Below, in pieces: positions 15,593 to 33,595 of a DNA stretch of 64,000 nt. Both the position numbers and the translations under genes were made by a program. The DNA is taken from the NCBI GenBank assembly GCA_004796425.1, contig QZLB01000125.1, positions 6,834-70,833 on the forward strand, written 5' to 3'. The notes beneath the pieces were generated by a model. The model did no database searches. It was given only the letters and a program-made list of their open reading frames with translations, and was not told the DNA's origin. Source of the stretch: Desulfobulbaceae bacterium. Its GTDB lineage: Bacteria > Desulfobacterota > Desulfobulbia > Desulfobulbales > Desulfocapsaceae. Positions within the stretch are counted from its first letter, which is position 1; the number at the start of each line of letters is the position of its first letter.

Positions 15593-15681
15593 TTTGGTCA
15601 CAGAAACCAAACAGACCTCCAGTCCAATCTCAGGTAGCCTCTGTCCCTAACTCAATGCACCTCAGTAGAAAGGTTGAACCG

Positions 15682-17070
15682 ATGAAACTAATCTTAAAAC
15701 AGACAATTCCGCTGCTCATTGCAGCTACCCTTTGTCTTACGGGATGTGTACCCGCGCTGGATAATAGTGGCCTGCAATCACTCACGATCCCTGACCAGTT
15801 CAGCAATGCTGAAAAAAGCGTATTAGATCAGGAAACAATCCTTTTTGAACCGGAGCTTCAACAATTTATCCACGAGGCCCTGACGAGAAATTATTCCTTG
15901 AAAGCAATGGTAAAGAACCTGGATCAGGTAAAAGCTCTCCATCGGATAACTAAGAGTGATCGTTATCCTCATGTCCAGGCTGATCTCAGCTATAATCGAA
16001 CGAAATCACAACTCGGACTCGTTGATAATTCTTATATCAGCTCTGAATTTAAAGCGGGGGCACAAGTCAGTTGGGAAATTGACCTGTGGGGAAAAATACG
16101 CGACAGGACCAATAGCAGCATACTTGAAGTAGAGGGAAGTATGATGGACTTGCACGCGGCCCGACTTTCACTCGCCTGCCAGATTGGCCAGGCTTGGTAT
16201 CAGGCAATTACTGCCCAACTACTTCATGATCAGGCAGAAGAAGTTTCAGAGAGTTTTTTCGCAACCTTTAAAGCGGTAAATGAGCGATATAGTAACGGAC
16301 TGGCCAGCGGACTTGATCTCTCAATGGCAAAAACCGCCTATGCCGACTCCAAAACCACCCTCCAGCAAACCCAACTCGATAAGCAGCGATCCCTACTGGA
16401 GCTTCAGGTTCTTGCAGGGCTGTACCCGGACAGCGTTATTGATTTACCAGAATCTTTTCCACCCCGTATCCCCCGGGTACCGTTAAAAGTTCCTGCTGAT
16501 TTGATCACCAAACGACCCGATATTATGGCGCTGTCAAGACGGCTCGAAGCAGCCGGTTATTCCTGGCGGGCTGTGTCTAAAGAACGGTTGCCTTCAATAA
16601 CACTCTCAGCCTCAGCTGGATTGAGTGGTGACCGGACAGACACCATCTTTAAGGGTTCCAATATCCTCTGGCAGCTTATTGGAGGAATCACTCAACCAGT
16701 TTTTGAAGGTGGGAAACTGCTTGCAGCAGCAGATGCAAAAGAAGCAGCATATCAGCAGCTTCATTTCGAGTTTCAACACCTCCTCTTAAACAGTTTTCGC
16801 GAAGTTGAGGAGGCGCTCTATAGCACAAGCGTTTTACAGGAGCAGTATAAAAGTGCCGAAGAAACGGCACGACTGGCAGAGAGTTCATGGACACTTGCCA
16901 AAGAATCCTACCAACTGGGGGGTACAGATGTTCTGACCATTCTTCTCAACCAGCGTCAGCATCTCCAAAGTCAAACCGCCCTGATTACGACTCAGAATCT
17001 TGTTTTCCAAAATAGTATCAAACTCATCCTGGCCCTCGGCCAGGGCTTACCCACTGGGAATGTGTTATGA
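15682..17070 (+). CDS. RND efflux outer-membrane factor lipoprotein (NodT/TolC family)
   Basis: Lipobox LTGC. Two TolC-type repeats, with the typical SYNRTK, WEIDLWGKIR and PDI..L...EAA motifs. Start at MKLILK; the ORF-track start 15655 is also possible. Confidence 0.9.
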   Translation: MKLILKQTIPLLIAATLCLTGCVPALDNSGLQSLTIPDQFSNAEKSVLDQETILFEPELQQFIHEALTRNYSLKAMVKNLDQVKALHRITKSDRYPHVQADLSYNRTKSQLGLVDNSYISSEFKAGAQVSWEIDLWGKIRDRTNSSILEVEGSMMDLHAARLSLACQIGQAWYQAITAQLLHDQAEEVSESFFATFKAVNERYSNGLASGLDLSMAKTAYADSKTTLQQTQLDKQRSLLELQVLAGLYPDSVIDLPESFPPRIPRVPLKVPADLITKRPDIMALSRRLEAAGYSWRAVSKERLPSITLSASAGLSGDRTDTIFKGSNILWQLIGGITQPVFEGGKLLAAADAKEAAYQQLHFEFQHLLLNSFREVEEALYSTSVLQEQYKSAEETARLAESSWTLAKESYQLGGTDVLTILLNQRQHLQSQTALITTQNLVFQNSIKLILALGQGLPTGNVL

Positions 17071-18260
17071 AAATTCATACAGTACTCAGACCAAAATCGT
17101 TGAAGATCCTATCCCCAATTCTCGTCATCTTTGCAGCACTCCTGATTGGGGGATGGTTGTGGACTAGAGAGACACCAGACCCTTTACCCAAACCGCCACC
17201 ACGTCTTCCGACGGTTCGGGTTGATCAGGCCAGGTTTTCCACTCATACGATGAGTATTTCCAGCCAGGGTTTTGTTGAACCGGTCATGAGCAATCATATC
17301 AGAGCCCCCTTTTCAGGAAAAATCACCGCCATCAACCCAAAATTGAAAAGCGGTGCGCAATTCAGGAAGGGTGAATGGTTATTCAAGCTTGATGACATCT
17401 ACTATCAAACCAATCTGGCAAGAGCACGGTCAGGACTTGCCCATGCCGGACTTCAACTAAAACAGGTTCAAGCTGCGGCCAGCCAGGCACGCAATGATTG
17501 GCAAAGACTTGGTGAAGGGAAGCCGAATGAACTGGTCCTTTATACCCCTCAATTGCAAGAGGCGAAAGCATTGGTTGAAGCTGCCGAAGCCGAGCTTAAA
17601 CTTGCAACTCAAACCCTCAAGGATACCACGGTGGTAGCTCCATATGATTGTCTAATCACCGCACTTGAGATCAGTTTCGATCAACAGGTTGAACCAAGTG
17701 AGCCGCTGGGAACACTCTGTGCAATCGCCACCGCCCGGATCAGATTACCAATCAGAGAAGAAGAGGCCATGAGATTGAAGGAGAATATCTGGAATGGACC
17801 ACTTTCATATTCGATACCGGTGGTTCTCGAGGCAGAACTGAATGGTGTTCGCCAATTATGGCAGGCTCAAATCGTCCGATCCGAAATGGTTATCGATCGA
17901 ACAAGCCGCAGGGTCTACCTGGTTGCTGAACTTGAGAGACCCTATGACCGTAAAGAAGGGGCACCCCTGCCGTTTGGCCTGCATGTCCAGGCGCAAATTG
18001 CGGGGAAGAAACTCGACAAACTCGTTCAAATACCCGCCAACGCCCTCCTTGAAAACAATATGATCGCCGTCCTCGACATGCAGAACAGGGTTCGCCTGAA
18101 AACTGTCCAGATTATAGAAGTCTCCGATCGTTTTGCTTTGATATCCAACGGGCTCAAACCTGGTGAAATGGTTTGTATTTCGCAGGTACCGCGGGTCCTG
18201 GTGGGTAAAGAGGTTCAGGTCGTAACCCCTTCAGAGGTTGCGGAGGTAATCCATGAGTAA
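17067..18260 (+). CDS. RND efflux periplasmic adaptor (MFP/HlyD family)
   Basis: N-terminal TM anchor, coiled-coil hairpin region (LQLKQVQAAASQ...AEAELKLATQTL), and barrel-sandwich motif VVAPYDCLIT. ATGA overlap with the OMF gene. Confidence 0.85.
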   Translation: MKIHTVLRPKSLKILSPILVIFAALLIGGWLWTRETPDPLPKPPPRLPTVRVDQARFSTHTMSISSQGFVEPVMSNHIRAPFSGKITAINPKLKSGAQFRKGEWLFKLDDIYYQTNLARARSGLAHAGLQLKQVQAAASQARNDWQRLGEGKPNELVLYTPQLQEAKALVEAAEAELKLATQTLKDTTVVAPYDCLITALEISFDQQVEPSEPLGTLCAIATARIRLPIREEEAMRLKENIWNGPLSYSIPVVLEAELNGVRQLWQAQIVRSEMVIDRTSRRVYLVAELERPYDRKEGAPLPFGLHVQAQIAGKKLDKLVQIPANALLENNMIAVLDMQNRVRLKTVQIIEVSDRFALISNGLKPGEMVCISQVPRVLVGKEVQVVTPSEVAEVIHE

Positions 18261-21200
18261 AAAAAGATCAGATCTTATTTCCTGGTTTACGGCAAACCCG
18301 GTAGCGGCAAACCTGCTCATGCTGTTGATTTTGATTGGCGGTACCCTGACACTCTCTACCATCCGTCAGGAATTTCTGCCTGAGATGAAAATCGAGCAGA
18401 TCTCGATTACCATTCCGTATCCTCAGGCCCTGCCCGAGCAGGTTGAGAAACAGGTTGTTGAACGAGCTGAAGCAGCCCTGGCAGGTATCGATGGAATCAA
18501 GAATATCCGTTCCTTTTCCTATGAAGGGGGCGCCACCATCATTGCCCGAACGAAAGCAAGAGCAAACCAAGCAAAGATAAGGGAGGAAATCGGTCACGCC
18601 ATCAACTCCATTGAGAATTTGCCGGAAAAAACCCAAAAACCAATCATCAAGGTGGATACCTATAAAGAAGGAGTACTTTGGGTGATTGTCTCCGGAGCAA
18701 TGAGCGAACGAGCTCTTAAGGATGTTTCCTCGTCAATCCATCGTGATTTATTATCTCTTTCCGGGGTCAGCCGAGCCGATTTGGAGGGTGTTCGAGATAA
18801 CGAAATAAGTATTGAACTCAAAGACGAACTCCTCCTAGAGTATGGTCTCAACATTGAAGCGGTGTCAAGCGCGATCAGGATGTCCGTGCAAGATGAACCC
18901 TTAGGAATTTTGAAAGGAAAAAGTGGCGAAATCCTGCTTCGGGCTGCCACCCAGTCGACTACAGCCAAAGCCTTTGAAGACATGATCCTGACTACTGATG
19001 CAACCGGCACGGCTGTGCGGTTGCGTGATGTCGCAGAGATTAAGGATGGCTTTGAGGAAGGTAACTGGTTTCTTCGCTTTAATGGGGAACGTGCAGCCGG
19101 TATCCAGGTGTTCCGCGTCGGGCGACAATCGATACAGGACGTAGCTGAAAGTGTCAAAACATATGTTGCAGAAAAGCAGCTGCAGATTCCCGAGAATGTT
19201 CGTGTTTCTGTTATTGCAGACACTTCTATTCCCCTTGAGGAACAGCTCGATACCATGGTCAGCAACGTCGTTACCGGTGCAATCCTTGTTTTTCTCGCGT
19301 TGTCACTTTTTTTACGAATCAAGCTTGCATTCTGGGTTGTCGCGGGAATCCCGGTCTGTTTCCTTGGTACCATCTGGATCATGGATACCAGTCCACTTGG
19401 CCTTTCAATTAACATGCTGACCTTGTTTGGCTTTATTCTAGTCATCGGTATTGTGGTGGATGATGCCATCGTTATCGGTGAGCATGTCCACACCTCTACC
19501 ACGCGCGATGGTTATGGTCTGGAACAGGTAATTCAGGGAACCAAAGCGGTCGCACTGCCAGCCACCTTTGGGGTACTCACGACCATTGCAGCCTTCATCC
19601 CTGTTTTAATGTTGCCGGGTGTCAATGGGCAGCTCTGGGGGAATATCGGTTGGGTGGTTGTAATCTGTTTAATATTTTCCTTAATTGAATCCAAACTCAT
19701 CCTGCCCGCACACCTGGCCTCCATGAAGAAGGAGCGCTGGACCAGATTCAACTACTGGTATCGCACACTGAGGTCTACGGTCGATCAGTTGCTCTCCTTC
19801 TCTATCAAGCACCTTTACCGACCGAGTCTGAAATGGGCGATTAAATGGCGCTATACGGTCATCGCCTTATTTTTGGCATCTGCCCTTATCACTGCGGCGA
19901 TGGTTAAGACCGGGGTGGTCAGGTTGGTGTTCTTTCCCGATTTTGAATCCGATGCCATTGAGGTTGAGCTCTCCATGCCCGGCGGCACCCCCTTTGGAGT
20001 AACCAGCCAGGCAGCCCAGGCCATAGAAGATGCGGTCATTACCGTAAACGAGCAGATCAAAAACGAATATCAAACCAACCATGACAGTATTAAGAATGTC
20101 ATTTCCTTTTCCGCCTCGGAAACAAGCGTTTGGTTTTACGCAGAACTGGCTCCGGTTGATCAAAGACCGCTTTCTTCAAAAGAGATCATCAGCGCGTGGC
20201 GAACAGCGGTTGGTTCGATACCGGGTGCAACCCGACTGAAATTTAACGGTGTTGAAGACGAACCCACGCCAGCAATTGATATCCAACTGAGTGGAACCAA
20301 TCACACCTACTTGCAGCAGGCATCTCAAGATCTCTATGGTTACCTTTCTGAACGAGAGGGTGTACACGACCTTGAGCACAGTTTGAAACCGGGTAAAAAG
20401 GAGTTACGACTCTCTCCTGTGCCTTTCAGCCAGTCGCTTGGTTTGACGATTTCTGATATTGCCAGCCAGGTAAGACAGGCGGTCTATGGCGAGAAAGTAC
20501 ATACATTCCAGCGCAATGGTGAAGAGACAGAGGTGTTTGTCCGTTATACCAACTCCCAACGCAACTCACTTGCTGATCTTAACCAGATTCATCTGAACAG
20601 TGCTGAAGGGAGTCTTCGCTTTGCTGATGCGGTGAATACCGAGTACCACCCATCCTCGATGGAAATCATGCACTTGAACAGAAAACGAATCTCCTGGATT
20701 ACGGGTGATATCGACAGTCGAATTACCAATGGTGGCGAAATCGTCGACTATATCAACCAATTCAAACCAGAACTGGAACACCGTTACCCGGGGATATCAA
20801 TACGTTTTGCAGGCCAGCAGGAAGAGCAGGGTGATTCCATCAAGGCGATGAAGAAATGGAGTCTGATCGCCTTGTTCCTCATCTATTCGCTGATGGCAAT
20901 TCCGTTGCGATCGTATGTGCAGCCATTTCTTATTATGAGCTGTATTCCGTTTGGTATCATCGGTGCGGTCTGGGGACATTATCTTTTCAATCTCCCGCTC
21001 AGTGTATTATCGCTTTGTGGGATCATCGCCTTATCAGGTGTGGTGGTGAACGACAGTCTGGTAATGGTAGATTTTGTGAACAGCAGAAAACGAAGCGGCA
21101 AAAATTCCATCCGGTCCATAACCGAAGCCGGTCCTGCCCGGTTCAGGGCCATTTTACTCACCTCGTTGACCACCTTTTTGGGTTTGTTACCTATGATGCT

Positions 21201-21399
21201 CGAGCAAAGCCTGCAAGCCCAATTCCTTATTCCCATGGCCGTTTCCCTGGGATTCGGAATTCTCTTTGCAACGCTTATTACCCTGTATCTCATTCCATTA
21301 TTATATCTGACAATGGAAGACGTTCTTCTATTTGTTAAGAAATTCAAACAACAGTTGTTCATGGAGCCGTTGGAAATTCCCGGGAGGATTGGAAAATGA
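18253..21399 (+). CDS. RND inner-membrane permease (AcrB/AcrD/AcrF, HAE1-like)
   Basis: 1048 aa with 12-TM architecture and two large periplasmic loops. Conserved GIVVDDAIV and GVVVNDSLV TM4/TM10 motifs. Confidence 0.9.
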   Translation: MSKKRSDLISWFTANPVAANLLMLLILIGGTLTLSTIRQEFLPEMKIEQISITIPYPQALPEQVEKQVVERAEAALAGIDGIKNIRSFSYEGGATIIARTKARANQAKIREEIGHAINSIENLPEKTQKPIIKVDTYKEGVLWVIVSGAMSERALKDVSSSIHRDLLSLSGVSRADLEGVRDNEISIELKDELLLEYGLNIEAVSSAIRMSVQDEPLGILKGKSGEILLRAATQSTTAKAFEDMILTTDATGTAVRLRDVAEIKDGFEEGNWFLRFNGERAAGIQVFRVGRQSIQDVAESVKTYVAEKQLQIPENVRVSVIADTSIPLEEQLDTMVSNVVTGAILVFLALSLFLRIKLAFWVVAGIPVCFLGTIWIMDTSPLGLSINMLTLFGFILVIGIVVDDAIVIGEHVHTSTTRDGYGLEQVIQGTKAVALPATFGVLTTIAAFIPVLMLPGVNGQLWGNIGWVVVICLIFSLIESKLILPAHLASMKKERWTRFNYWYRTLRSTVDQLLSFSIKHLYRPSLKWAIKWRYTVIALFLASALITAAMVKTGVVRLVFFPDFESDAIEVELSMPGGTPFGVTSQAAQAIEDAVITVNEQIKNEYQTNHDSIKNVISFSASETSVWFYAELAPVDQRPLSSKEIISAWRTAVGSIPGATRLKFNGVEDEPTPAIDIQLSGTNHTYLQQASQDLYGYLSEREGVHDLEHSLKPGKKELRLSPVPFSQSLGLTISDIASQVRQAVYGEKVHTFQRNGEETEVFVRYTNSQRNSLADLNQIHLNSAEGSLRFADAVNTEYHPSSMEIMHLNRKRISWITGDIDSRITNGGEIVDYINQFKPELEHRYPGISIRFAGQQEEQGDSIKAMKKWSLIALFLIYSLMAIPLRSYVQPFLIMSCIPFGIIGAVWGHYLFNLPLSVLSLCGIIALSGVVVNDSLVMVDFVNSRKRSGKNSIRSITEAGPARFRAILLTSLTTFLGLLPMMLEQSLQAQFLIPMAVSLGFGILFATLITLYLIPLLYLTMEDVLLFVKKFKQQLFMEPLEIPGRIGK

Positions 21400-22142
21400 T
21401 CAAAGCTATCGTTCTTGTTCCTCTCTCTCTTCTTCTTTGTTCGCCGGTTTTGGGTGGCACGAATCTTGAGCGTTGGCGGATTGCCCACACACATTTTGTC
21501 AATTCAAAAAAATTACCGCAGGAAGTACATATCATATCCCGCGCTATTGACGATGAAGGCAACCTGCTTGAATCGTCAAAACTATACTGCTCCCTGCATC
21601 GAACAAAATCAAACCGGCTTTACCTGGTGGTGGAAAGTGGTTTTAGTGACGGGAAAAAACTTACCGCATCTGAATGTGCTGAGATGAGTGAAGAAGTAAA
21701 TGAAGAAGAGCTCCAACCCCCGTTTCCTTTTGACCTGACGGACCCGGGCAGTATCATTCACAACCCGTCACCACTCCCTGAAACCGCGGGCGCAGAAACA
21801 TGCCCAAGCGCTTTCTCCGCAACAATTGATAAGCACCCGGTAACCGGTGTCATTACCTATGATTGCCAAACCTCTCTGCCACTTGAGGTAAACTGGACTA
21901 TCACCGAACCTTTTGAAGAAGATTCACTGGCGGTCAGTTCCCTCAACCAGCATGACACGTATCAGATCACCAGTGGGGGGAATTGTCTGCAAGCGGTTTC
22001 TAAAACAGTCATTGAGGCAGAATATGGTATACTCTTTTTGCAGAAGCGGATTACAATCATCACCGAAGAAACGTACCTGAAGTATGTGGACTATACAAAG
22101 CTCCCGCTTTACTTACCGTCCGCAAGGAATAATGGCTTATAA
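21396..22142 (+). CDS. Secreted hypothetical protein translationally coupled to the RND permease
   Basis: The ATG overlaps the permease stop (ATGA). Signal peptide MIKAIVLVPLSLLLCSPVLGG. No family recognised. Confidence 0.6.
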   Translation: MIKAIVLVPLSLLLCSPVLGGTNLERWRIAHTHFVNSKKLPQEVHIISRAIDDEGNLLESSKLYCSLHRTKSNRLYLVVESGFSDGKKLTASECAEMSEEVNEEELQPPFPFDLTDPGSIIHNPSPLPETAGAETCPSAFSATIDKHPVTGVITYDCQTSLPLEVNWTITEPFEEDSLAVSSLNQHDTYQITSGGNCLQAVSKTVIEAEYGILFLQKRITIITEETYLKYVDYTKLPLYLPSARNNGL

Positions 22143-22146
22143 CACC

Positions 22147-22854
22147 ATGACTCAACAAACCCATATACTGTTGGTGGAAGATGACCGCAGACTTATTCAG
22201 CTTATTCGGGACTATCTGGAGAAGCAGGATTTTCAGGTTACAACAGCGGAACGGGGTGATATCGCGGTTACCCTGATAACTCAAACCCAGCCAGATCTGG
22301 TTATCCTGGATCTTATGCTGCCCGGTAAAGATGGCTTAAGCGTCTGCCGGGAAGTCCGTCACCGCTATCCCGGGCCAATACTCATTCTTACCGCCCGGGA
22401 AGAGGATAGTGATCAAGTCGCCGGCCTCGAGCTCGGGGCTGACGATTACGTTAAGAAACCGGTCGAGCCGCGGGTACTTCTTGCCAGAATACGAGCACTG
22501 CTTCGCCGCTTATCTCAACCACATCCGGAAGCGCAGAAAGAAGCTACCCTGGTTTTTGATAAACTTGTGATTTGCCCTGAATCCAGAAAGGTAACCTTTG
22601 AGGATCAGGAGGTTGATCTCACTTCAAGTGAATTTGACTTGATCCACCTGCTGGCAGAAGCTGCTGGAACGATTGTGGACCGCGACAGTCTTTTCAGGTC
22701 ACTGCGAGGTATCGAGTATGATGGTCTTGATCGGAGTGTCGATGTCTCCATCTCCCGGCTCAGAAAAAAGCTGGGTGACTCGTCTACCAAACCATTCAAA
22801 ATAAAAACGGTCTGGGGCCAAGGCTACCTCTTTGTCCCGGACGCCTGGTATTAA
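22147..22854 (+). CDS. rstA: OmpR-family response regulator, RstA-like
   Basis: The REC domain carries VEDD...DLVILDLMLPGKDG. The C-terminal winged helix (DRDSLFRSLRGIEYDGLDRSVDVSISRLRKKL....PFKIKTVWGQGYLFVPDAW) is nearly collinear with E. coli RstA. Confidence 0.8.
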   Translation: MTQQTHILLVEDDRRLIQLIRDYLEKQDFQVTTAERGDIAVTLITQTQPDLVILDLMLPGKDGLSVCREVRHRYPGPILILTAREEDSDQVAGLELGADDYVKKPVEPRVLLARIRALLRRLSQPHPEAQKEATLVFDKLVICPESRKVTFEDQEVDLTSSEFDLIHLLAEAAGTIVDRDSLFRSLRGIEYDGLDRSVDVSISRLRKKLGDSSTKPFKIKTVWGQGYLFVPDAWY

Positions 22855-22879: not shown

Positions 22880-24178
22880 ATGAAACGATTCTTTCTCTCA
22901 ACGTATTTTTTCCTCTTACTGGCATTCTGTATCACCATCTTCGGGGTTGATCTGGCTGCAACCTACTATCTGGAAAAAAAATATAATGAAATTGTGCTTG
23001 AACTGAATGAAGAGTTGAGTCGTGGTACCTTTTATCTGCTTGAAAAAGAATTTCAGCAACGCGGGAACCAAAGCTACCAGGAAATAATTGATCAATTGCA
23101 GCCAGAATTTGGCTATCCACTCAAACTCCAAAGACTCAGCGATCTGGAATTTACCAGCAAAGAGGAAAAAATCCTGCAGAGAAAAGGGGTTATAATCCGT
23201 GAGGATGGTGATCTTCACCTGAGGCAGATTGGAGAGAGCGATTACGTGGTCTCCATGGGACCATTCAAGGATATCGATCTCAAACCGCTTGAGACAACCA
23301 GCTTATTCATCTTGGGAGCGATCATTTTTGGTTTACTTATCTTTCTCTGGACCGTCTTTTTCTGGCAGAAGCTGCTCAAGATCAGTAAAGCTGTTGATGC
23401 ATTCGGACAAGGAGATTTCTCCGCCAGGGCAGTGGTTTCAAAATTCTCTTCCATCTCCGCCATTGCCCGTAATTTTAACGAGATGGCAGAGCAAATAGAA
23501 CGGCTTATCTCTTCGCACAAGCAGCTTGTGAACTCGGTATCGCATGAATTACGAACACCTATTTCCCGCATTCGTTTCGGACTTGAAAGCGTGCGTACCG
23601 CCCCAGAAATTGATAGGGACAAACATCTCAAAGGGATCCGCCACGATGTTGATGAATTGGACGAGTTGGTCAATGAATTGCTGAGTTACAGCCGTTTTGA
23701 GCGTATGGAAAATAGTTTTGAGGTTTCTCCCAAACCGTTGCTACCCTGGCTTCATGAATACCTGACGCTGGTACATGAATCAATCGACACAGAAATTGAA
23801 TTCATTGGCAGGGATATTGATCTAGATACCTTGGTCTGTTTTGATCCCAGGCAACTTGAGAGAGCACTTCATAATCTACTGCAAAACGGAAGTCGCTATA
23901 GCAACGGAAAGATGCAGATCGTGTTAAAAAAAGAAGCTCAGTGTATTGCCATCTCAGTAGGTGATGACGGCCCAGGTATCCCGGAAGAAGATAGAGTGCG
24001 GATTTTTGAACCTTTTGTCAGGCTGGATTCCAGCAGGAACCGGGAACGCGGTGGATATGGCCTCGGCCTGGCCATTGTCCGTGAGATCGTGCGCAATCAT
24101 AACGGGCATCTTAAGGTTGGTAGATCTTCGTTAGGCGGAGCACTCATAACCCTGGAAATACCGCTTGCCTTAAGCTGA
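22880..24178 (+). CDS. rstB: Sensor histidine kinase, RstB-like (2 TM, HAMP, HisKA, HATPase_c)
   Basis: Same architecture as RstB. H-box SHELRTPISRIRF, N-box LLQNGSRY, G-boxes DDGPGIP and GGYGLGLAIV. Confidence 0.75.
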   Translation: MKRFFLSTYFFLLLAFCITIFGVDLAATYYLEKKYNEIVLELNEELSRGTFYLLEKEFQQRGNQSYQEIIDQLQPEFGYPLKLQRLSDLEFTSKEEKILQRKGVIIREDGDLHLRQIGESDYVVSMGPFKDIDLKPLETTSLFILGAIIFGLLIFLWTVFFWQKLLKISKAVDAFGQGDFSARAVVSKFSSISAIARNFNEMAEQIERLISSHKQLVNSVSHELRTPISRIRFGLESVRTAPEIDRDKHLKGIRHDVDELDELVNELLSYSRFERMENSFEVSPKPLLPWLHEYLTLVHESIDTEIEFIGRDIDLDTLVCFDPRQLERALHNLLQNGSRYSNGKMQIVLKKEAQCIAISVGDDGPGIPEEDRVRIFEPFVRLDSSRNRERGGYGLGLAIVREIVRNHNGHLKVGRSSLGGALITLEIPLALS

Positions 24179-24271
24179 TTTCTGCCTGTTTGATATCACC
24201 TAAACAATTTTCCATACAGAGATTCATAAATATAGATTCATTCTTTTCCACCTGATCTCTTAATAAGAGTA

Positions 24272-24299
24272 TTGACATTTCATGACGTCCTGGTATCAT
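24272..24299 (+). promoter_or_regulatory. Sigma70-like promoter: TTGACA - 16 nt - TATCAT
   Basis: Consensus -35 at 24272-24277 and a near-consensus -10 at 24294-24299. It lies 34 nt upstream of the RHH ATG, and AAGGGA sits 5 nt before that ATG. Confidence 0.45.
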
Positions 24300-24312
24300 G
24301 ACGTCATGAAAT
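24277..24312. promoter_or_regulatory. Perfect 13-bp inverted repeat (ATTTCATGACGTC / GACGTCATGAAAT) spanning the promoter; likely operator
   Basis: Arms at 24277-24289 and 24300-24312 with a 10-bp spacer that contains the -10 box. CATGACGTC also occurs as a direct repeat (24281-24289 and 24297-24305). Confidence 0.6.
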
Positions 24313-24332
24313 AACAACATCAAGGGAATCCT

Positions 24333-24506
24333 ATGCCAAAAGAAAATAAAAAAAACACCTCTTTGCGGCTTGAAAACAAAGTGCTGAAAGAACTCAAAAT
24401 AGTTGCCATTGAAGAGGATACGAGTGTCCAGGCAATTGTTGAGACCTTGATCCAAAATTTCCTGAAAAACCACAAGAAAAAGAAAAGAAAAGACAGCGAT
24501 TCATGA
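24333..24506 (+). CDS. 57-aa ribbon-helix-helix protein, ParG/CopG-like (absent from the ORF track, below its size cut-off)
   Basis: My translation is MPKENKKNTSLRLENKVLKELKIVAIEEDTSVQAIVETLIQNFLKNHKKKKRKDSDS. The strand-helix-helix pattern is collinear with TP228 ParG (...VNVNFDEEKHTRFKAACARKGTSITDVVNQLVDNWLKEN). Confidence 0.7.
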   Translation: MPKENKKNTSLRLENKVLKELKIVAIEEDTSVQAIVETLIQNFLKNHKKKKRKDSDS

Positions 24507-24525
24507 ATCGGCATTGTTTATTACT

Positions 24526-26019
24526 ATGATACCTACTGCCTATACCTTACCATCACGATTTCCCCACAAGTCCATTAGTAAAGCGTTATCCCCTGATCTC
24601 TTTCTTTCACAAAAACCTGCGGATGAGGAAACGGTTGTTCTTCTGGACACTTTTGATGAAGAACTGAGAAGCAGTGGAAGATTGCTTCTTGAATCAGCTA
24701 CAGGATTGATTCTTATCAACCCCAAGTCTGGTACTTTCTTCCAGCAATCCGGTCATGCCAAATTTCTCTGTCATACAGAGATTACCGAGGGTGCCGTCAA
24801 ACAAGCGTTGAAAAGTGTTTCAGATTTACGCGCTTTTTTGCCGGTCGTTACTCTGGTTCTTGAAAAAAATATCCGGTTGGTACTTGATGATGAAGGAAAA
24901 ACGGTCGTTCGGCTGCATTGCTTCAGCTTCAAGAGGAAAAAAAATAATGGTACACAACTGGCTCTCAGTCAGCCACTTCGAGGATATGTAAAGGAATATG
25001 CCCAACTGACTCATGCGATGCAGAGTATTAGCCGTGAAGATCACTCCATCTACGAAGCACTCTCCATTAAGTCAACCGGTTTCAACCCAAAACCGATTAT
25101 TACGTTGAAAAAATCGGATCCAATAAAGCATACGACAAACATGATCATCTCCACGTTCATCGGAGTTGCACGCCAAAATGAAACAGGGATCGAGCGTGAT
25201 TATGATACCGAGTTTCTTCATGATTACCGGGTCAGCTTTAGAAAGGTTCGGTCTGTGCTCAGTCTATTTAAAGGAGTATATAGCCCCACTGACACCGCAC
25301 ACCTCAAAACTGAATTTGCAGATATTATGAAGGTGACCGGTCGGCTTCGGGACCTGGATGTCTACCTACTTGATAAATCAAACTATTTCTCACTCGTGCC
25401 CGAATCAACCCACGAGGGTCTTACGTTGCTATTCAAAGCGTTTGAGAAGGAACGAAGTGTAAAACATAAGCTTCTCTGCAAATCCATCAAAAGCACATCC
25501 TACAAAAAGCGAGTCGAGAAGTTGGCCAATAATTTCAGCCAGGACAATTATCACGCCGGTTCACAAGCGAACATCAAATCGCTTGAATATGCCTGTAGAG
25601 TTATACTTAAGCGATATCAGAAAGTCTGTACCATCGCCCGATCAATCAATGAACATACTGAAGATGAGGTGGTGCATGATTTGCGAATTCACTGCAAGAA
25701 ACTTCGATATTTAATGGAGTTCTTCACCCCACTTTTTGAGAAAAAGAGCATAAGATCGCTGATTAAATCACTTAAATTACTGCAGGACAATCTTGGCAGA
25801 TTTAACGATTGCTCCGTGCAGCAGGAATCACTCCGTGACTTTCTAACTGTAAACCCCTACACAGGAGCCCAAAAGATCAACGTTGCTCAGAGTATCGGCG
25901 CGCTTACTGCCATGCTGAACCTCCAGCAACAAAAAGAGAGAAGTCTGGTGATGAAAAACTTCGCCCAATTTGACAGCAGGACTACCAGGGAACTGTTTCA
26001 CCAACTTTTCAGCACCTAA
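24526..26019 (+). CDS. CHAD domain protein with an N-terminal ~190-aa region of uncertain (possibly degenerate CYTH-like) fold
   Basis: CHAD signatures: HDYRVSFRKVRSVLSLF, GRLRDLDVYL, VHDLRIHCKKLRYLMEFF, LQDNLGRFND. The N-terminus lacks the ExExK motif of active CYTH enzymes. Confidence 0.85.
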   Translation: MIPTAYTLPSRFPHKSISKALSPDLFLSQKPADEETVVLLDTFDEELRSSGRLLLESATGLILINPKSGTFFQQSGHAKFLCHTEITEGAVKQALKSVSDLRAFLPVVTLVLEKNIRLVLDDEGKTVVRLHCFSFKRKKNNGTQLALSQPLRGYVKEYAQLTHAMQSISREDHSIYEALSIKSTGFNPKPIITLKKSDPIKHTTNMIISTFIGVARQNETGIERDYDTEFLHDYRVSFRKVRSVLSLFKGVYSPTDTAHLKTEFADIMKVTGRLRDLDVYLLDKSNYFSLVPESTHEGLTLLFKAFEKERSVKHKLLCKSIKSTSYKKRVEKLANNFSQDNYHAGSQANIKSLEYACRVILKRYQKVCTIARSINEHTEDEVVHDLRIHCKKLRYLMEFFTPLFEKKSIRSLIKSLKLLQDNLGRFNDCSVQQESLRDFLTVNPYTGAQKINVAQSIGALTAMLNLQQQKERSLVMKNFAQFDSRTTRELFHQLFST

Positions 26020-26030
26020 GGATCGTGATT

Positions 26031-26771
26031 ATGAAAATTCTCGCATGTTACAGCAACAAAGGCGGTGTTGGAAAAACCGCAACCTCGGTAAACCTTGCAT
26101 ATGCCTCGGCCATCAATGGCAAAAGAACTCTGCTCTGTGATCTCGACCCCCAGGGTGCTTCCGGTTTCTATTTCCGAATAAAACCCTCCCGCAAGCTCAA
26201 GGAACAGGCTTTTTTCAAAGATGTGGACAAATTCACCGGGGCAATCAGGGCAAGTGATTATGATAACCTCGATTTATTGCCGGCAAATTTAAGTTATCGA
26301 GACTTTGATATTTTCCTCTCCCGAATGAAAAACAGCCGCTCGCGACTCAAAAAAGCCCTCAAAGCGGTTAACAACGATTATGACCTCGTACTGCTTGATT
26401 GTCCGCCGAACATCTCACGGCTTTCAGAGAATGTTTTTCGGGTCGCCGACAGAATTGTAGTTCCCGTGATTCCTACCACACTTTCTGAAAGAACCCTTGG
26501 ACAGCTTTACGATTTTTTTAAGGATAACAAGTTCCAGAAAAAGAAAATTCTGCCGTTTTTTTCAATGGTGCAGCGTCAGAAAAAACTCCACAAACAGACA
26601 ATGGAGGAGTTAAGAAATCAATATCCGGGCTTTTTGAAGCCAGCGATTCCCTCCTCAACAGATATCGAACGGATGGGAGTTCATCGGGCGCCTGTGCTCA
26701 CCTATGCAAAGAAAAATTCAGCGGCCATAGCTTACAACGATATCTGGAAAAGTATAGACAAGCATCTGTAG
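26031..26771 (+). CDS. ParA/MinD-family P-loop ATPase
   Basis: Deviant Walker A YSNKGGVGKTAT, then DLDPQG, and Walker B DLVLLDCPP. About 246 aa with no N-terminal HTH, i.e. ParF/small-ParA type. Confidence 0.9.
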   Translation: MKILACYSNKGGVGKTATSVNLAYASAINGKRTLLCDLDPQGASGFYFRIKPSRKLKEQAFFKDVDKFTGAIRASDYDNLDLLPANLSYRDFDIFLSRMKNSRSRLKKALKAVNNDYDLVLLDCPPNISRLSENVFRVADRIVVPVIPTTLSERTLGQLYDFFKDNKFQKKKILPFFSMVQRQKKLHKQTMEELRNQYPGFLKPAIPSSTDIERMGVHRAPVLTYAKKNSAAIAYNDIWKSIDKHL

Positions 26772-26798
26772 TCTTCATCTTCAATCACCAGACAAATA

Positions 26799-27215
26799 AT
26801 GGCAGCAAAAATTCAATACGGTGTCATACCCTACATCTGCGGCAAAGGGGCGAAAAGGGGATCCAAAATAATACTGGTCACCAGCAAAACCAATGGCTAC
26901 TGGATTTTTCCCAAGGGAAACCCTGTAAAAAACAAAACATCTATCCAGTCCGCCAAACAGGAAGCGTATGAAGAAGCAGGGCTCACCGGGAGCATAACGG
27001 GTCCCAATAATTATTCCTTCTCAATACACGATAAAGGAGGCACCTACACCATCGTACTTTTCCCCATGAAAGTGAAAAATGTTCTCGAGGAATGGCCGGA
27101 AATGAGTGAACGAAACAGAACGGTAACCTCAGTGGGTGAGGCTCTGCAACTTATCCGGTACAGCGAACTGCAATACTGCCTGAAACAGTGGCACCAGGAC
27201 AACTACTGCTCATGA
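26799..27215 (+). CDS. Small Nudix hydrolase, DIPP/Ddp1-like
   Basis: WIFPKGNPVKNKTSIQSAKQEAYEEAGL resembles the DIPP box (WIVPGGG...AVREVYEEAGV). Nudix box positions E7 and R15 are K and Q here. Confidence 0.75.
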   Translation: MAAKIQYGVIPYICGKGAKRGSKIILVTSKTNGYWIFPKGNPVKNKTSIQSAKQEAYEEAGLTGSITGPNNYSFSIHDKGGTYTIVLFPMKVKNVLEEWPEMSERNRTVTSVGEALQLIRYSELQYCLKQWHQDNYCS

Positions 27216-27239
27216 TTTCAAGTGAAGTGAGCAGACCGA

Positions 27240-29864
27240 TTAGTTATCCAGTGTCTGGCGTATACAGGTTGCCAGACTGGTCATCGAAACAGGCTTCACC
27301 AAGAATTTTTTGATCCCTAAATCCAACGCATCACTCTCTTGGAAAGACTCTGAGTAACCTGAGCAGATAATAATGGGCTGCGCTGGCGTGCATTCAAGCA
27401 GACGGCGAGCCACCTCATCTCCTTGAATTTTGGGCATGTTCATGTCCGTGATAACCAGATCAAACGCTTCGGGAGCCTGCGTGTATGCGGCCACGGCTTG
27501 CTGTCCGTCTGTGAAGCCATGGACTTCATAACCAAGACCGGAAAGGGTGTGATTCATGATGTCGATCAGATCATCTTCATCATCAATCACCATGATTGAC
27601 TCTGTTCCGTGTGGCAGTAACTCATCCTGAGCCACCTCCATGGCCATCGGACAGTGCACCTTGGGCAGAAAAACCTTGAAATGCGACCCGCTTCCCTCTT
27701 TACTCTCGACCTCAATGAAGCCCCTGCTTTCCTGGACAATTCCATGTACCACTGAGAGACCCAACCCTGTTCCGCTCTGATCTTCTTCAGTGGTATAGAA
27801 CGGGTCAAAAATTTTATCCAGTGCTTCGGCTGGGATTCCTCTGCCCGAATCAACAACGCTCAAACAGAGAAAAACGCCACCGGTGACCCCTGAGTGGGAT
27901 TGTGCCATTTCCGTCGACACGGGTTTCTCATGCAGGCCAATACGGATGATTCCTCCCGTGGGCATCGCCTTTCCCGCATTGGTGCAAAGGTTCATGACCA
28001 GCTGGTGCATTTTCGTGGTATCTCCTTGAACACAGCCTTCCGAGCCAATATCTCCGACAATTTCAATGGTCGCAGGGAGCGTCGCCCGGAGGAGCTTCTC
28101 AACCTCACGAACCACGTGACTCATTTGCACCTGTTCAGTTTTCTCCTCGCTCTTCCTGGCAAAGGTCAGAATTTGCTGAACTAGGAGCCTGGCCCGATTG
28201 CCCGCCTGTAATATCTGCTCTAACCTCTCAGAATCCTGTTCATCCCTGGTTTTCTTTAATAAAAGGATCTCCGCATAACCGATGATGGCTGAAAGAATAT
28301 TATTGAAATCATGAGCAATCCCGCCCGCAAGGGTACCAATGGCCTCAAGTTTACGAGACTGGGACAGTTGCTCTTCCATATTCTTTCGTTCCGTCAGGTC
28401 CCGGATCGCTGCCACTCGTACCTCTTTTCCTTCATACTCCATATGACGGATTCGGACCTCAATGGGAAATTCGGTGCCATCTTTGTGCAGTGCAAGCGCT
28501 TCATACTTGTCTACATCCTTGCGTTTGAGCTTCTCATTAACAATCTTCTGGTACTTCTCTGAAAAGAGGATCGGCACAATCTGTTTTCCCCGTACCTCTT
28601 CCACCTGATAACCGAAGAGCTGGGTAAACATCTGATTTGCTTCTAACAGAACACCACCATCATGGAAGATCAGCGCTTCCCAGGTCGATTCGGCAAGCTG
28701 ACGGAACCGTTTGCCGCTTTTGATCAGGGCCAGCTCTGCACGTTTTCTGCGCTGTACATTTGCAACCAGCAGGATAATGACCAGAAGCAGCACACAAATA
28801 AATGAACTGACAACCCATATCTGATAGCGATAGTGCTCATAAAAAGAGTAGGGCCGCAGCACGACCAGCGCTTCCGGCGGCAACCTGTGCTCCTGTAAGC
28901 CAAAACGCTGGAGTTGCTGATAATTATAAATTGGTTGATTGCTGCCTTTCTTGAGAACCGGTAATTGCGAAATGTCTGTACCCTGCAGAAACTGTTGGAC
29001 CAGACCGGCCATGGCGCGTCCCTGATAATAGCCACTGATTACCTGCCCACCAACCATACCCTCATCAATAATAAATTCCACCAGACTGAAGACCGGAACA
29101 CTACTCGCCTCTGAAAATCGGGTCGCGACATCCTCATATGAAAAAAACTGATTGTGCCGGTCTGAGAAATAGGCTCCCAGAAGAACAATGGTGTCTGCAG
29201 GCAGAGTCCCTAATTTTTGCAACAATTCATCCATCGAGAGGTTCTCTGCATACTCAAAGACGACCTCATCTGCAATCTGAGCAACCTGCTTTTTAATATC
29301 AGTTTCCCAAAACCTGCCGGTTTTTAGATAATCGTTAACGACATACACGCGTTTGACACCGGGGACGAGCTGCAAGGCCTGTCGAATTGTTTGATCGGCA
29401 GAGAACACCTCGGTCGCTCCGGTAACTTGAGATAGTCCAGCAAGCTGTTCATCGGCAAAATTGTTTACCCCACAAAAAAAGATCGGTACTCCGGGGAACA
29501 ATTCATCGCGATGCTTGCGCAAAAAATCATACGCATTGTTGTCAGAGCAAAGGAGGAGCTTGAGATGCTGATCTTTATATTTTATGGCAAGATATGTCTT
29601 GAATGCTGCAAAATACTGCTCTGAATGAAATTCCTTTGAATCCATATTTTCAATATGGAAAACCAAATCATTATCGTCAGGTTGCAAGACATCCTCTACC
29701 CCGCGTACGATATCCTGCACCCACGGCATCCGCTGATGATAGGAGTTGATCATCAGGATATGACGCTTTTCACTGACATCGGCGGAGACACCACAGCTAC
29801 CTCCCCATAAAACGATGAAATGCACAAAGATGACACAAAGAATTTTCTGGTCGCAGAGGCTCAC
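27240..29864 (-). CDS. Hybrid sensor histidine kinase (periplasmic SBP-like domain, TM, PAS, HisKA, HATPase_c, C-terminal REC)
   Basis: N-terminal signal plus an ABC-substrate-binding-like domain (ILMINSYHQ). H-box GGIAHDFNNIL, G-boxes DSGRGIP and GTGLGLSVVHGIV. The REC domain has IMVIDDEDD...VITDMNMP...KP. Confidence 0.9.
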   Translation of the reverse strand: MSLCDQKILCVIFVHFIVLWGGSCGVSADVSEKRHILMINSYHQRMPWVQDIVRGVEDVLQPDDNDLVFHIENMDSKEFHSEQYFAAFKTYLAIKYKDQHLKLLLCSDNNAYDFLRKHRDELFPGVPIFFCGVNNFADEQLAGLSQVTGATEVFSADQTIRQALQLVPGVKRVYVVNDYLKTGRFWETDIKKQVAQIADEVVFEYAENLSMDELLQKLGTLPADTIVLLGAYFSDRHNQFFSYEDVATRFSEASSVPVFSLVEFIIDEGMVGGQVISGYYQGRAMAGLVQQFLQGTDISQLPVLKKGSNQPIYNYQQLQRFGLQEHRLPPEALVVLRPYSFYEHYRYQIWVVSSFICVLLLVIILLVANVQRRKRAELALIKSGKRFRQLAESTWEALIFHDGGVLLEANQMFTQLFGYQVEEVRGKQIVPILFSEKYQKIVNEKLKRKDVDKYEALALHKDGTEFPIEVRIRHMEYEGKEVRVAAIRDLTERKNMEEQLSQSRKLEAIGTLAGGIAHDFNNILSAIIGYAEILLLKKTRDEQDSERLEQILQAGNRARLLVQQILTFARKSEEKTEQVQMSHVVREVEKLLRATLPATIEIVGDIGSEGCVQGDTTKMHQLVMNLCTNAGKAMPTGGIIRIGLHEKPVSTEMAQSHSGVTGGVFLCLSVVDSGRGIPAEALDKIFDPFYTTEEDQSGTGLGLSVVHGIVQESRGFIEVESKEGSGSHFKVFLPKVHCPMAMEVAQDELLPHGTESIMVIDDEDDLIDIMNHTLSGLGYEVHGFTDGQQAVAAYTQAPEAFDLVITDMNMPKIQGDEVARRLLECTPAQPIIICSGYSESFQESDALDLGIKKFLVKPVSMTSLATCIRQTLDN

Positions 29865-32755: not shown

Positions 32756-33595
32756 CTATGCGGCAAGGAGCACTTGCTGCTGCATTCGGTTGTTTGCAAA
32801 ACGATCGGCGATTTGCCGGAAATGATCCCGGATGTGCAAAAAAGCATCAACCAGAGTTGGATCAAAGTGCACGCTGGCACCTTGTTCAATAATTTCAACA
32901 CTGTCTCGGTGAGAAAAAGCTTCTTTGTAACTTCGTTTGCTTATCAAAGCATCATAAACATCAGCAATTGCCATTAAACGAGCGGAAAGCGGTATTTTCG
33001 TTTCACTCAACCCTAGGGGATACCCTGAGCCATCCCATTTCTCGTGATGCGAGTAGGCTATTTCACGCGTTGTTTGTAAAAATGAGTTTGTTCCAAGTAT
33101 CTCTTCTACCTCCTGGATTATGCTTCTGCCTTTCTCAGTGTGAGTTTCCATGATCGCTCGTTCACAGCTATTCAGTAAGCCAGATTTGCGAAGTATTTCA
33201 TCAGGAATTGCCACTTTCCCAATATCATGAAGTGGTGCTGAATGATAAAGTAATGCTCGCATGTTTTTTCCAATTTTATAATGCTTCTTATCCAGTCGTT
33301 GGGTTTCCTCCGCAAGAACGTTCATATAACTCTGAGTTCTTTCGATATGATAGCCTGTCTCAAGGTCCCTCATTCTCATCATTGAAGCCATTCCAAGCAG
33401 TGCAGCCTCCTGAGTTTTTATCAACTGTGCTGGTTTTTTCAGCAGTCGTTCTTCCAGCACAAAAGAGTCGATTATTCCCAAAGGCTTTTTCATACTCTTT
33501 ACCCGGTTCGAGAAAAATTTCGAAACACTCGGTAGTCCAAAGGAAAACTGATTTAATTCTACCCGCTCCATTTGTCTCTCCTGTTTTAAATACAT
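32756..33595 (-). CDS. HD-GYP domain protein (putative c-di-GMP phosphodiesterase)
   Basis: Motifs H..R, LHDIGKVAIPDEIL, HHEKWDGSGYPLGL and IADVYDAL. There is no REC domain. Confidence 0.85.
   Translation of the reverse strand: MYLKQERQMERVELNQFSFGLPSVSKFFSNRVKSMKKPLGIIDSFVLEERLLKKPAQLIKTQEAALLGMASMMRMRDLETGYHIERTQSYMNVLAEETQRLDKKHYKIGKNMRALLYHSAPLHDIGKVAIPDEILRKSGLLNSCERAIMETHTEKGRSIIQEVEEILGTNSFLQTTREIAYSHHEKWDGSGYPLGLSETKIPLSARLMAIADVYDALISKRSYKEAFSHRDSVEIIEQGASVHFDPTLVDAFLHIRDHFRQIADRFANNRMQQQVLLAA

Follow-up and report, generated by a model that had tools for sequence, protein, structure and literature searches.

We analyzed a 64-kb stretch of DNA from a Desulfobulbaceae bacterium (contig QZLB01000125.1; the window) in which four co-directional genes encode a small ribbon-helix-helix (RHH) protein, a CHAD-domain protein, a small ParA/MinD-type ATPase, and a Nudix protein (Table 1). 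According to the initial annotation of the window, the ATPase appears to be wired to a polyphosphate (polyP)-binding protein and to a hydrolase. The gene neighborhoods of related loci agree with this proposal. In 74 of 76 informative loci, the ParA gene is directly preceded by a CHAD gene in the same orientation, an arrangement that is far from chance, and genes for PPK1, CYTH, and Nudix proteins recur nearby. A functional connection between the ParA-type ATPase and polyP is strongly supported by these sequence comparisons, because the CHAD adjacency extends over at least four phyla or classes, PPK1 can substitute for the CHAD protein, PPK1, CYTH, and Nudix genes lie in the vicinity, and ParA::CYTH fusions exist. 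By analogy, we infer that the ATPase spaces or segregates polyP granules. We give an even chance to the reading that the whole operon would be a chromosomal, self-regulated system for the spatial organization of polyP granules.

Conservation of the CHAD-ParA gene pair

Related loci were collected by a ParA alignment scan covering one genome per GTDB species. The best 80 of at least 303 confirmed loci were used, and the window and a locus of Desulfotalea psychrophila were added, which resulted in 82 loci. Neighboring genes were counted by hidden Markov model (HMM) searches of six-frame open reading frames (ORFs), with the loci having enough flanking sequence as denominators. The ParA proteins of these loci are 66–80% identical to the window ParA. 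Their carriers are Desulfobulbales, Desulfobacter and Desulfospira, Pontiella (Kiritimatiellota), Gammaproteobacteria (Neiella, Cellvibrionales, Oleiphilaceae), and Rhodobacteraceae (Seohaeicola, Sedimentitalea, Phaeobacter). Paracoccus, represented in a plasmid collection, carries the clade as well. The concern that the linkage might be confined to a single lineage was dispelled by this spread over several phyla, but the exact four-gene order is rare and occurs, among the 82 loci, only in the window and in L002. Two forms, CHAD-ParA and RHH-CHAD-ParA-CYTH-Nudix, are widespread, and the conserved core is the CHAD-ParA pair; most Desulfobulbales loci consist of CHAD-ParA alone, with no hydrolase in the operon.

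None of the 82 loci is without a polyP-linked neighbor. In 33 of 62 loci, ppk1 is found no more than 5 kb upstream, and in most Desulfobulbales it is oriented divergently to the CHAD gene. ParA is followed by a gene for a 160-aa CYTH protein, whose EIERKF motif is intact, in 21 of 76 loci and by a Nudix gene in 13 of 76; at least one of the two is present in 27 of 76. The two loci lacking a CHAD gene, L066 (1-3641) and L068 (4913-8750), originate from metagenome-assembled genomes (MAGs) of Desulfobulbaceae and have the order Nudix, PilZ-like protein (100 aa), PPK1 paralogue, ParA. Here, PPK1 stands in the position of the CHAD protein. The PilZ match (E 0.001) hints at a c-di-GMP input into this variant operon. 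L066 shares its MAG with a standard PPK1/CHAD-ParA locus (L037), so that two such ParA systems can coexist in a genome.

The two core proteins differ in their conservation. Over 73 loci, the mean pairwise identity was 71% for ParA (minimum 61%) and 44% for the CHAD protein, with 32% for its N-terminal domain and 51% for the CHAD domain. The distance sets of ParA and the CHAD protein were correlated (r = 0.88). As judged from this correlation, the two are inherited as a unit, in which the ATPase is strongly constrained and its partner evolves fast, a pattern seen in ParA-adaptor pairs.

Some observations concern individual loci. The ParA gene of D. psychrophila LSv54 is DP1251, flanked by CHAD and Nudix genes; in this locus (L001, 6001-7641), both the RHH gene and the TGACGTCA operator described below are missing. 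The start annotated for its 546-aa CHAD protein is probably misplaced by about 48 codons in the 5′ direction, as the orthologues begin with MKPYIL. A convergent gene for a protein of approximately 137 aa, with Cys-x2-Cys pairs and a weak Zn-ribbon Pfam match, lies just 3′ of ParA in 18 Desulfobulbales loci (for example, L009, 2287-2700). In L021, L023, and L045, all from MFD-series MAGs, the PPK1 and CHAD genes appear in frame-shifted pieces or merged with ParA. We assume that these breaks are sequencing errors and not signs of pseudogenes, on the premise that the assemblies are built from long reads.

The CHAD protein carries a predicted polyphosphate-binding site

The 497-aa protein had been described as containing a CHAD domain, and residues 212-437 indeed matched PF05235 with E 6.5e-55 (187 bits). 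An AlphaFold2 model of the whole protein had a predicted local distance difference test (pLDDT) score of 92, and its C-terminal two thirds superimposed on the CHAD-polyP complex of C. tepidum (6qva) with a TM score of 0.94 at 34% identity. In CtCHAD, mutating H253, R256, R260, R296, R418, or Y419 weakens polyP binding (PMC6537752). The counterparts in the window protein are H232, R235, R239, R275, R394, and Y395, and all six are invariant across 46 homologues. From its sequence and modeled structure, the CHAD domain is predicted to be polyP-competent.

The N-terminal 190-200 residues form a beta-barrel (pLDDT 93 when modeled alone). All 24 PDB matches that Foldseek returned for it at E ≤ 1e-3 were CYTH/TTM proteins or the TTM-like Med18/20, with E values down to 1.9e-6 and TM scores of 0.44-0.53, three matches being lower. 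At the sequence level, the domain had no Pfam match and no ExExK motif, strand 1 reading AYTLP, and hhalign against 16 operon-linked CYTH proteins gave a probability of 0.6%. An assignment to CYTH by sequence was discarded on these grounds, and the likeness of the fold alone stands. D41, F43, R102, D121, K125, T126, R129, R152, G153, and Y154 are invariant in the domain, of which D41, R102, D121, K125, R129, and R152 are retained across phyla. The protein probably has the YgiF-like order of TTM and CHAD domains with a non-catalytic TTM-like module, which is a candidate for docking ParA or for binding polyP ends.

The ATPase belongs to the ParA/Soj family

The description of the third gene product as a small ParA/MinD ATPase with the deviant Walker A motif SNKGGVGKT proved correct. 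The protein matched AAA_31 with E 1e-37 (130 bits; cut-off 27) and CbiA with E 3e-13 (50 bits). The Walker A motif, including the signature lysine K10 and K15, as well as the Walker A′ and Walker B aspartates D37, D39, and D123, are invariant in the clade. We conclude that the protein is, by all its motifs, an intact ParA-type ATPase.

The nearest solved structures are the ParA-family/Soj proteins 8ray and 4pfs, HpSoj (6iub), and TtSoj (1wcv), with E values from 1e-17 to 3e-25. McdA (6non/6noo) scored about 6e-7, MinD structures about 1e-6, and ParF (4dzz) 1.4e-6 against the ParA profile, with no single ParF stretch passing alone. By these scores, Soj is a closer relative of the ATPase than ParF. 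The alignment to Soj covers the protein to its very end, with the last Soj helix as its final element, so there is no extra C-terminal helix of the membrane-binding MinD type. The isoelectric point (pI) is 9.8 for the window ParA, 9.4-9.8 in the clade, and 9.4 as the median of the wider family.

Domain fusions in the wider family and a possible switch function

A HMMER search of 1.84 billion cluster representatives yielded 344 relatives of the ParA protein at E ≤ 1e-30, of which the best 150 were inspected for fusions. The wider relatives form a continuum of 36-62% identity. Six separate 50%-identity clusters (P0259, P0268, P0279, P0303, P0319, P0358) comprise proteins with an N-terminal ParA and a C-terminal CYTH domain, 40-49% identical to the window ParA. 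One further protein, P0248, is a fusion of ParA with a sucrose-6F-phosphate phosphohydrolase/HAD-type phosphatase (S6PP/HAD) domain, and another, P0270, is a CHAD::ParA fusion; P0300, P0347, and P0359 are extended at the C-terminus by about 280 aa that match no Pfam family. Among the loci of the wider family, L087 encodes a ParA::CYTH fusion 3′ of a 524-aa CHAD gene, and L086, the locus of the CHAD::ParA fusion, has the order PFK-PPK1-CHAD::ParA-CYTH. A relative of 39% identity has no polyP context. CHAD::ParA fusions were considered as Rosetta-stone evidence and set aside as weak, P0270 having a truncated CHAD domain in a single-run assembly and L045 belonging to a frameshift-ridden MAG. The ParA::CYTH fusions are robust and argue that this ParA subfamily would physically work with TTM-type domains.

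These fusions also bear on another explanation, in which the ParA protein, instead of being a positioning motor, would dimerize in an ATP-dependent manner and serve as a switch for the assembly or regulation of CYTH, Nudix, and PPK1 on granules decorated with CHAD, so that polyP synthesis or mobilization is coupled to the ATP level. The six ParA::CYTH clusters and the ParA::S6PP phosphatase fusion would suit such a scaffold, as would a ParA-CYTH pair without CHAD, the hydrolase gene 3′ of ParA in 27 of 76 loci, the PPK1 gene directly before ParA in L066 and L068, and the missing Soj-type DNA-contact motif. However, the prevalence of CHAD-ParA-only loci among the Desulfobulbales indicates that a polyP binder and an ATPase make up the conserved core, and the TTM-like domain in the window lacks ExExK. 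Moreover, ParA/MinD proteins with the signature lysine are overwhelmingly spatial regulators, and the conservation contrast between motor and adaptor fits cargo systems. We consider a switch or scaffold unlikely.

The RHH protein is most likely an autorepressor

The first gene had been annotated as a 57-aa RHH protein with Lys-rich tails at both ends, collinear with ParG of plasmid TP228. Its size and tails stood up to analysis: a Lys-rich N-terminal tail, the strand KKNTSLRL, and a basic C-terminal tail are common to the RHH orthologues. RHH families of Pfam matched with E about 1e-4, each below its gathering cut-off. The collinearity with ParG is weak. The best solved structure for the RHH profile was the viral RHH protein E73 (E 0.006), ParG (1p94) scored E 0.54, and hhalign gave a probability of 59% over 35 columns, covering helix 2 only. 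On these values, we treat the protein as a generic RHH without demonstrable membership in the ParG family and keep ParG as an analogy.

In 25 of 74 loci, the gene directly 5′ of CHAD encodes an RHH orthologue. Of the 25 loci with an RHH gene, 23 have the site TGACGTCA in the 400 nt preceding the CHAD start, versus 1 of the 48 without it. This single locus is L067, where the site is present and an RHH gene was not detected. The site, which has a CRE-like core, appears mostly in the form ATGACGTCAT beside related half-sites (tgatgtca, atgacat), and ATGACGTCAT is kept upstream of the RHH gene in Desulfobulbales, Desulfobacter, Gammaproteobacteria, and Alphaproteobacteria. The palindromes are confined to the promoter. 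According to this distribution, the RHH protein and the TGACGTCA site are inherited together. Because of this co-occurrence, and because the sites in the window overlap the promoter, the RHH protein is most likely an autorepressor of the operon; a role as an accessory partner of ParA is possible. The proposal that it acts as a ParG-type partner was not borne out, given its presence in 25 of 74 loci, the lack of significant similarity to ParG, and its association with the promoter palindrome.

A small RHH gene upstream of a ParA gene, together with the presence of the clade on Paracoccus megaplasmids, could suggest that the operon harbors a relic of a plasmid or integrative and conjugative element (ICE), that is, a partition cassette of the ParF/ParG type lying among polyP genes by chance. 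The plasmid collection contained six records above 60% identity, each a megaplasmid of Paracoccus. In the one whose annotation was examined, from P. aestuarii, the PGAP annotation reads hypothetical (the RHH protein), CHAD, AAA ATPase, CYTH, and NUDIX, with overlapping stop and start codons. There, the ParA gene again sits inside an RHH-CHAD-ParA-CYTH-Nudix cluster, far from replicon origin functions. Below this group, the identity of plasmid matches drops from 62% to 46% or less. The three next matches examined (39-46%) had no annotated CHAD neighbor, the Halomonas stretch among them carrying no annotation at all; relatives at 39-46% identity, from plasmids and metagenomes, mostly lack polyP neighbors or lie on short contigs. 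ParF reached just E 1e-6, compared with 1e-22 to 1e-25 for Soj-type ParAs, and the ParG similarity is below significance. The window ParA is not nested among ParF/ParG systems with plasmid remnants, a possibility left by the initial annotation: no mobile-element gene was found within about 8 kb of the operon, and palindromes occur at the promoter only. We see next to no chance that the operon is such a relic.

The Nudix protein resembles Ddp1/DIPP hydrolases

The fourth protein exceeded the PF00293 cut-off narrowly (23.4 versus 21.1 bits). Its description as DIPP-like was corroborated, since yeast Ddp1 (7auu) was its best solved relative (E 1.4e-7, residues 23-119), followed by Thermus Ndx1, the Aquifex Ap4A hydrolase, and human DIPP1-3. 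The Nudix box, G40-x5-K-x7-QEAYEEAGL, retains the catalytic glutamates E55, E58, and E59; compared with the REUXEE consensus, it has Q in place of R, and box position 7 is K instead of Glu. The protein is predicted to be a small hydrolase of the Ddp1/DIPP/ApnA-hydrolase type. Nudix homologues occur near ParA in 18 of 82 loci.

The ApnA hydrolases among these relatives raise the question of whether ParA and Nudix are accessory to cAMP or ApnA signaling. A gene cluster of Acidithiobacillus has been drawn as RND-folD-ppk-parA-(CYTH-CHAD), and its CYTH-CHAD protein has been proposed to be a polyP-regulated class IV adenylate cyclase (PMC6416229). In the window, however, the N-terminal domain of the CHAD protein has neither ExExK nor a CYTH signal in Pfam or hhalign, which makes catalysis unlikely, and a signaling module would leave the ParA-type ATPase unexplained. 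We regard a role in nucleotide signaling as very improbable.

A model for the positioning of polyphosphate granules

In our model, the 497-aa protein would bind polyP through its CHAD domain and coat the granule surface, as suggested by the conserved residues and the fold. The degenerate TTM-like N-terminal domain, possibly together with the Lys-rich tail of the RHH protein, may contact ParA and stimulate ATP hydrolysis. By analogy, ParA-ATP dimers would attach to a polyanionic matrix, for which the nucleoid is the likeliest candidate. Stimulation of the ATPase at the granule would then create a local depletion zone that keeps granules apart and unfused and distributes them among the daughter cells, as it does for plasmids and carboxysomes. 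The Ddp1/DIPP-like Nudix protein, and elsewhere also the catalytically intact CYTH enzyme, may trim or mobilize polyP at this site. The RHH protein would repress the promoter through the two TGACGTC(A) palindromes, as its strict co-occurrence with them implies.

Several findings weigh against this model. The first concerns DNA binding. In HpSoj, K199, K227, K230, and K247 contact DNA (PMC6393308). In the window ParA, the positions of K199 and K247 are taken by K188 and K228, and those of K227 and K230, which belong to the IPRxxR motif, by S208 and D211, so that two of the four contacts are basic. HpSoj K230 is equivalent to R218 of B. subtilis Soj, and the window ParA has the acidic D211 at this position. 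The IPRxxR motif reads IPSSTD in the window ParA and IP[FS]STD in the clade, and its basic pair was found in no member of the wider ParA family. Because of this replacement, nucleoid binding in the canonical mode is doubtful. No ATPase-stimulating peptide was identified. The TTM-like assignment of the N-terminal domain is a structural one, with TM scores of about 0.45-0.53 and an hhalign probability of 0.6%. The RHH gene is missing from two thirds of the loci, and a ParA of 51% identity is paired with CYTH alone, without CHAD. Fusions with enzymes (CYTH, S6PP/HAD) are unusual for a ratchet motor that cycles on and off its partner. Finally, granules can be spaced by other means: Synechococcus elongatus has spaced granules without this system and without another ParA (PMC13081873), and Pseudomonas aeruginosa uses AlgP for granule spacing (PMC9239181).

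The replaced DNA contacts leave room for polyP itself as the matrix. In this case, the basic ParA-ATP dimer would bind to the granule surface, where it and the CHAD protein would make up an ATP-dependent coat. This coat would determine the number and size of the granules or prevent their coalescence, with no nucleoid ratchet involved. The high pI values of the clade and the wider family, the loss of DNA-contact residues (D211), and the unusually basic alpha-8 region (R182, K184, K185, H187, K188) are in line with such a coat. Basic patches suit DNA equally well, however, and polyP is not known to serve any ParA/MinD protein as a binding surface. As granules are embedded in the nucleoid in several bacteria, this explanation also overlaps with nucleoid-based positioning (PMC13081873, PMC11894788). 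We give it little credence, less than a switch function.

Comparison with known systems

In full-text literature searches, which did not cover the 2002 CHAD/CYTH paper by Iyer and Aravind, we found no description of a ParA system for polyP granules, as the initial annotation had supposed. According to a 2026 preprint, S. elongatus positions its polyP granules without the help of the single ParA that it has, by a mechanism 'yet to be discovered' (PMC13081873). In a 2025 review, ParA/MinD proteins are listed for other cargos only (PMC11894788). Both describe the mechanism for polyP granules as undefined apart from the AlgP tether of Pseudomonas, and AlgP is the one known spacing factor (PMC9239181). 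The sole earlier mention of the linkage that the searches retrieved is the Acidithiobacillus ppk-parA-(CYTH-CHAD) cluster (PMC6416229; PMC10892726). By its gene labels, it combines the same three families in a different order. In both papers, ParA is merely labeled a partition protein, and a role in polyP is neither proposed nor tested.

Among characterized systems, McdA/McdB likewise consists of a chromosomally encoded ParA-type ATPase beside a fast-evolving cargo-binding partner, serves a non-DNA inclusion, and has a motor that is more conserved than the adaptor. The similarity to McdA is weak (E about 6e-7), however, and the window ParA retains the signature lysine. McdB is a partner of the disordered type, whereas the partner in the window combines a TTM-like domain with a CHAD polyP binder and is encoded upstream. 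Moreover, the cargo would be an inorganic polymer granule, and hydrolases and a kinase are co-encoded. Soj/ParA proteins (6iub, 1wcv, 8ray, 4pfs) have in common with the window ParA the length of the fold and the deviant Walker A, Walker A′, and Walker B motifs. The window locus differs in having no parB/parS, IP[FS]STD in place of IPRxxR, and a pI of about 9.8, and its ParA belongs to a discrete, CHAD-linked group.

The ParF/ParG system of TP228 also pairs a small RHH protein with a basic N-terminal tail and a small ParA-type ATPase. ParG represses its own promoter, and the RHH protein of the window is probably self-repressing, too. The differences are the marginal similarity to ParF (E 1e-6), the insignificant one to ParG, the absence of a centromere array and of a plasmid context in the window, and the gene order, with the RHH gene upstream and the CHAD gene between RHH and ParA. 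Furthermore, two thirds of the loci do without the RHH protein.

YgiF-type TTM-CHAD proteins and phosins (PptA, CtCHAD) have the same domain order, CHAD fold, and polyP-binding residues, but the N-terminal domain in the window has neither ExExK nor a CYTH signal at the sequence level, and its subfamily is coupled to a ParA ATPase. For the granule-nucleoid tethers AlgP (P. aeruginosa) and PhaM/PhaF, the outcome is the one proposed here, namely even spacing and inheritance of storage granules (PMC9239181, PMC11894788). They are passive, histone-like proteins without an ATPase, whereas the operon in the window encodes an ATP-driven ParA-type component. Taken together, it is plausible, from sequence and analogy, that the operon is a cargo-type system of the ParA/MinD family with a new cargo and a new adaptor.

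Organization of the operon and its surroundings

The four ORFs are located where they had been predicted. With start codons set by the N-termini of orthologues, the intergenic gaps are 19, 11, and 27 nt, as annotated. The CHAD gene has an alternative TTG start at 24514, giving 501 aa; the ATG is favored because orthologues begin with MxPFxYxLPS. The claim of a single operator-bearing promoter was also confirmed. The sigma-70-type site is the sole strong promoter-like site on the + strand within 24100-27400, and TCATGACGTC is present twice with a spacing of 16 nt (24280, 24296), the second copy covering the -10 hexamer. Terminator-like sites on the + strand were absent from the same interval, both inside and just past the operon, and the gene next to its 3′ end is convergent. 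For a structured RNA or riboswitch in the leader, no Rfam match was obtained in 23500-27800 at E ≤ 0.1. All four operon proteins are basic, and none has a specific family in NCBIfam. In sequence, they match proteins of a Desulfobulbaceae MAG with 100% identity.

Table 1. Positions of the operon and its regulatory and domain features in the window
Feature	Position	Strand or location	Description and basis
Sigma-70-type promoter	24272-24299	+	TTGACA-16 nt-TATCAT, TG before -10; 11/12 matches
Operator copy 1	24280-24289	promoter spacer	TCATGACGTC, imperfect palindrome TGACGTCC; direct and inverted repeats
Operator copy 2	24296-24308	overlaps -10 hexamer	TCATGACGTCATG, perfect palindrome ATGACGTCAT; repeat scan
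RHH gene	24333-24506	+	57 aa; ORF list and Pfam
CHAD-protein gene	24526-26019	+	497 aa from ATG; ORF and Pfam
N-terminal domain of CHAD protein, aa 1-200	24526-25125	+	TTM/CYTH-like beta-barrel without ExExK
CHAD (polyP-binding) domain	25126-26019	+	PF05235 and structure match
ParA gene	26031-26771	+	246 aa; orthologue N-termini MKIIACYSNKGG
Nudix gene	26799-27215	+	138 aa; ORF and Pfam

The surrounding genes, which encode an RND efflux pump, two-component systems, a hybrid kinase, and an HD-GYP protein, are of chromosomal type. A tblastn search of the 64-kb window detected neither PPK1 nor a standalone CYTH protein. An anti-phage defense system was considered and rejected, as PADLOC returned just a P-loop fragment. 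A direct repeat, AGATTCAT-6 nt-AGATTCAT, is located at 24220-24241, about 30 nt 5′ of the -35 hexamer; an activator, perhaps the OmpR-type regulator whose gene lies just upstream at 22123-22854, may bind there. The RND efflux system (OEP, HlyD, AcrB) is encoded at 15655-21399, a few kb upstream of the operon. The Acidithiobacillus figure likewise places RND genes beside folD-ppk-parA-(CYTH-CHAD), which is maybe a coincidence (PMC6416229). Between the RND pump and the two-component system, an ORF at 21396-22142 encodes 248 aa with a signal-peptide-like N-terminus and no Pfam match. Signaling genes are abundant around the operon: an HD-GYP-type (HD_5) protein is encoded at 32756-33595 on the - strand, and three more genes for two-component or hybrid kinases flank the operon.

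Implications

With slightly less than even confidence, we propose that the operon would represent the first dedicated ATP-driven system for the positioning and inheritance of polyP granules. Its motor would be a distinct, basic ParA subfamily, its adaptor a TTM-like/CHAD protein (PPK1 or CYTH in the variants), and it would have spread as a module over Desulfobacterota, Proteobacteria, and Kiritimatiellota. In a bolder version of this proposal, ParA would bind to polyP itself instead of DNA. If the positioning function is true, an inorganic polymer granule would join the cargo classes of ParA/MinD proteins, with a new adaptor architecture of TTM-like and CHAD domains, and the CHAD 'phosins' would gain their first concrete function past polyP binding. 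The carriers Paracoccus, Phaeobacter, and D. psychrophila are tractable organisms. Even if ParA were a regulator, the conserved set of ATPase, CHAD, CYTH, Nudix, and PPK1 proteins would define a previously unrecognized polyP-handling complex of relevance to phosphorus-removal and sediment bacteria.

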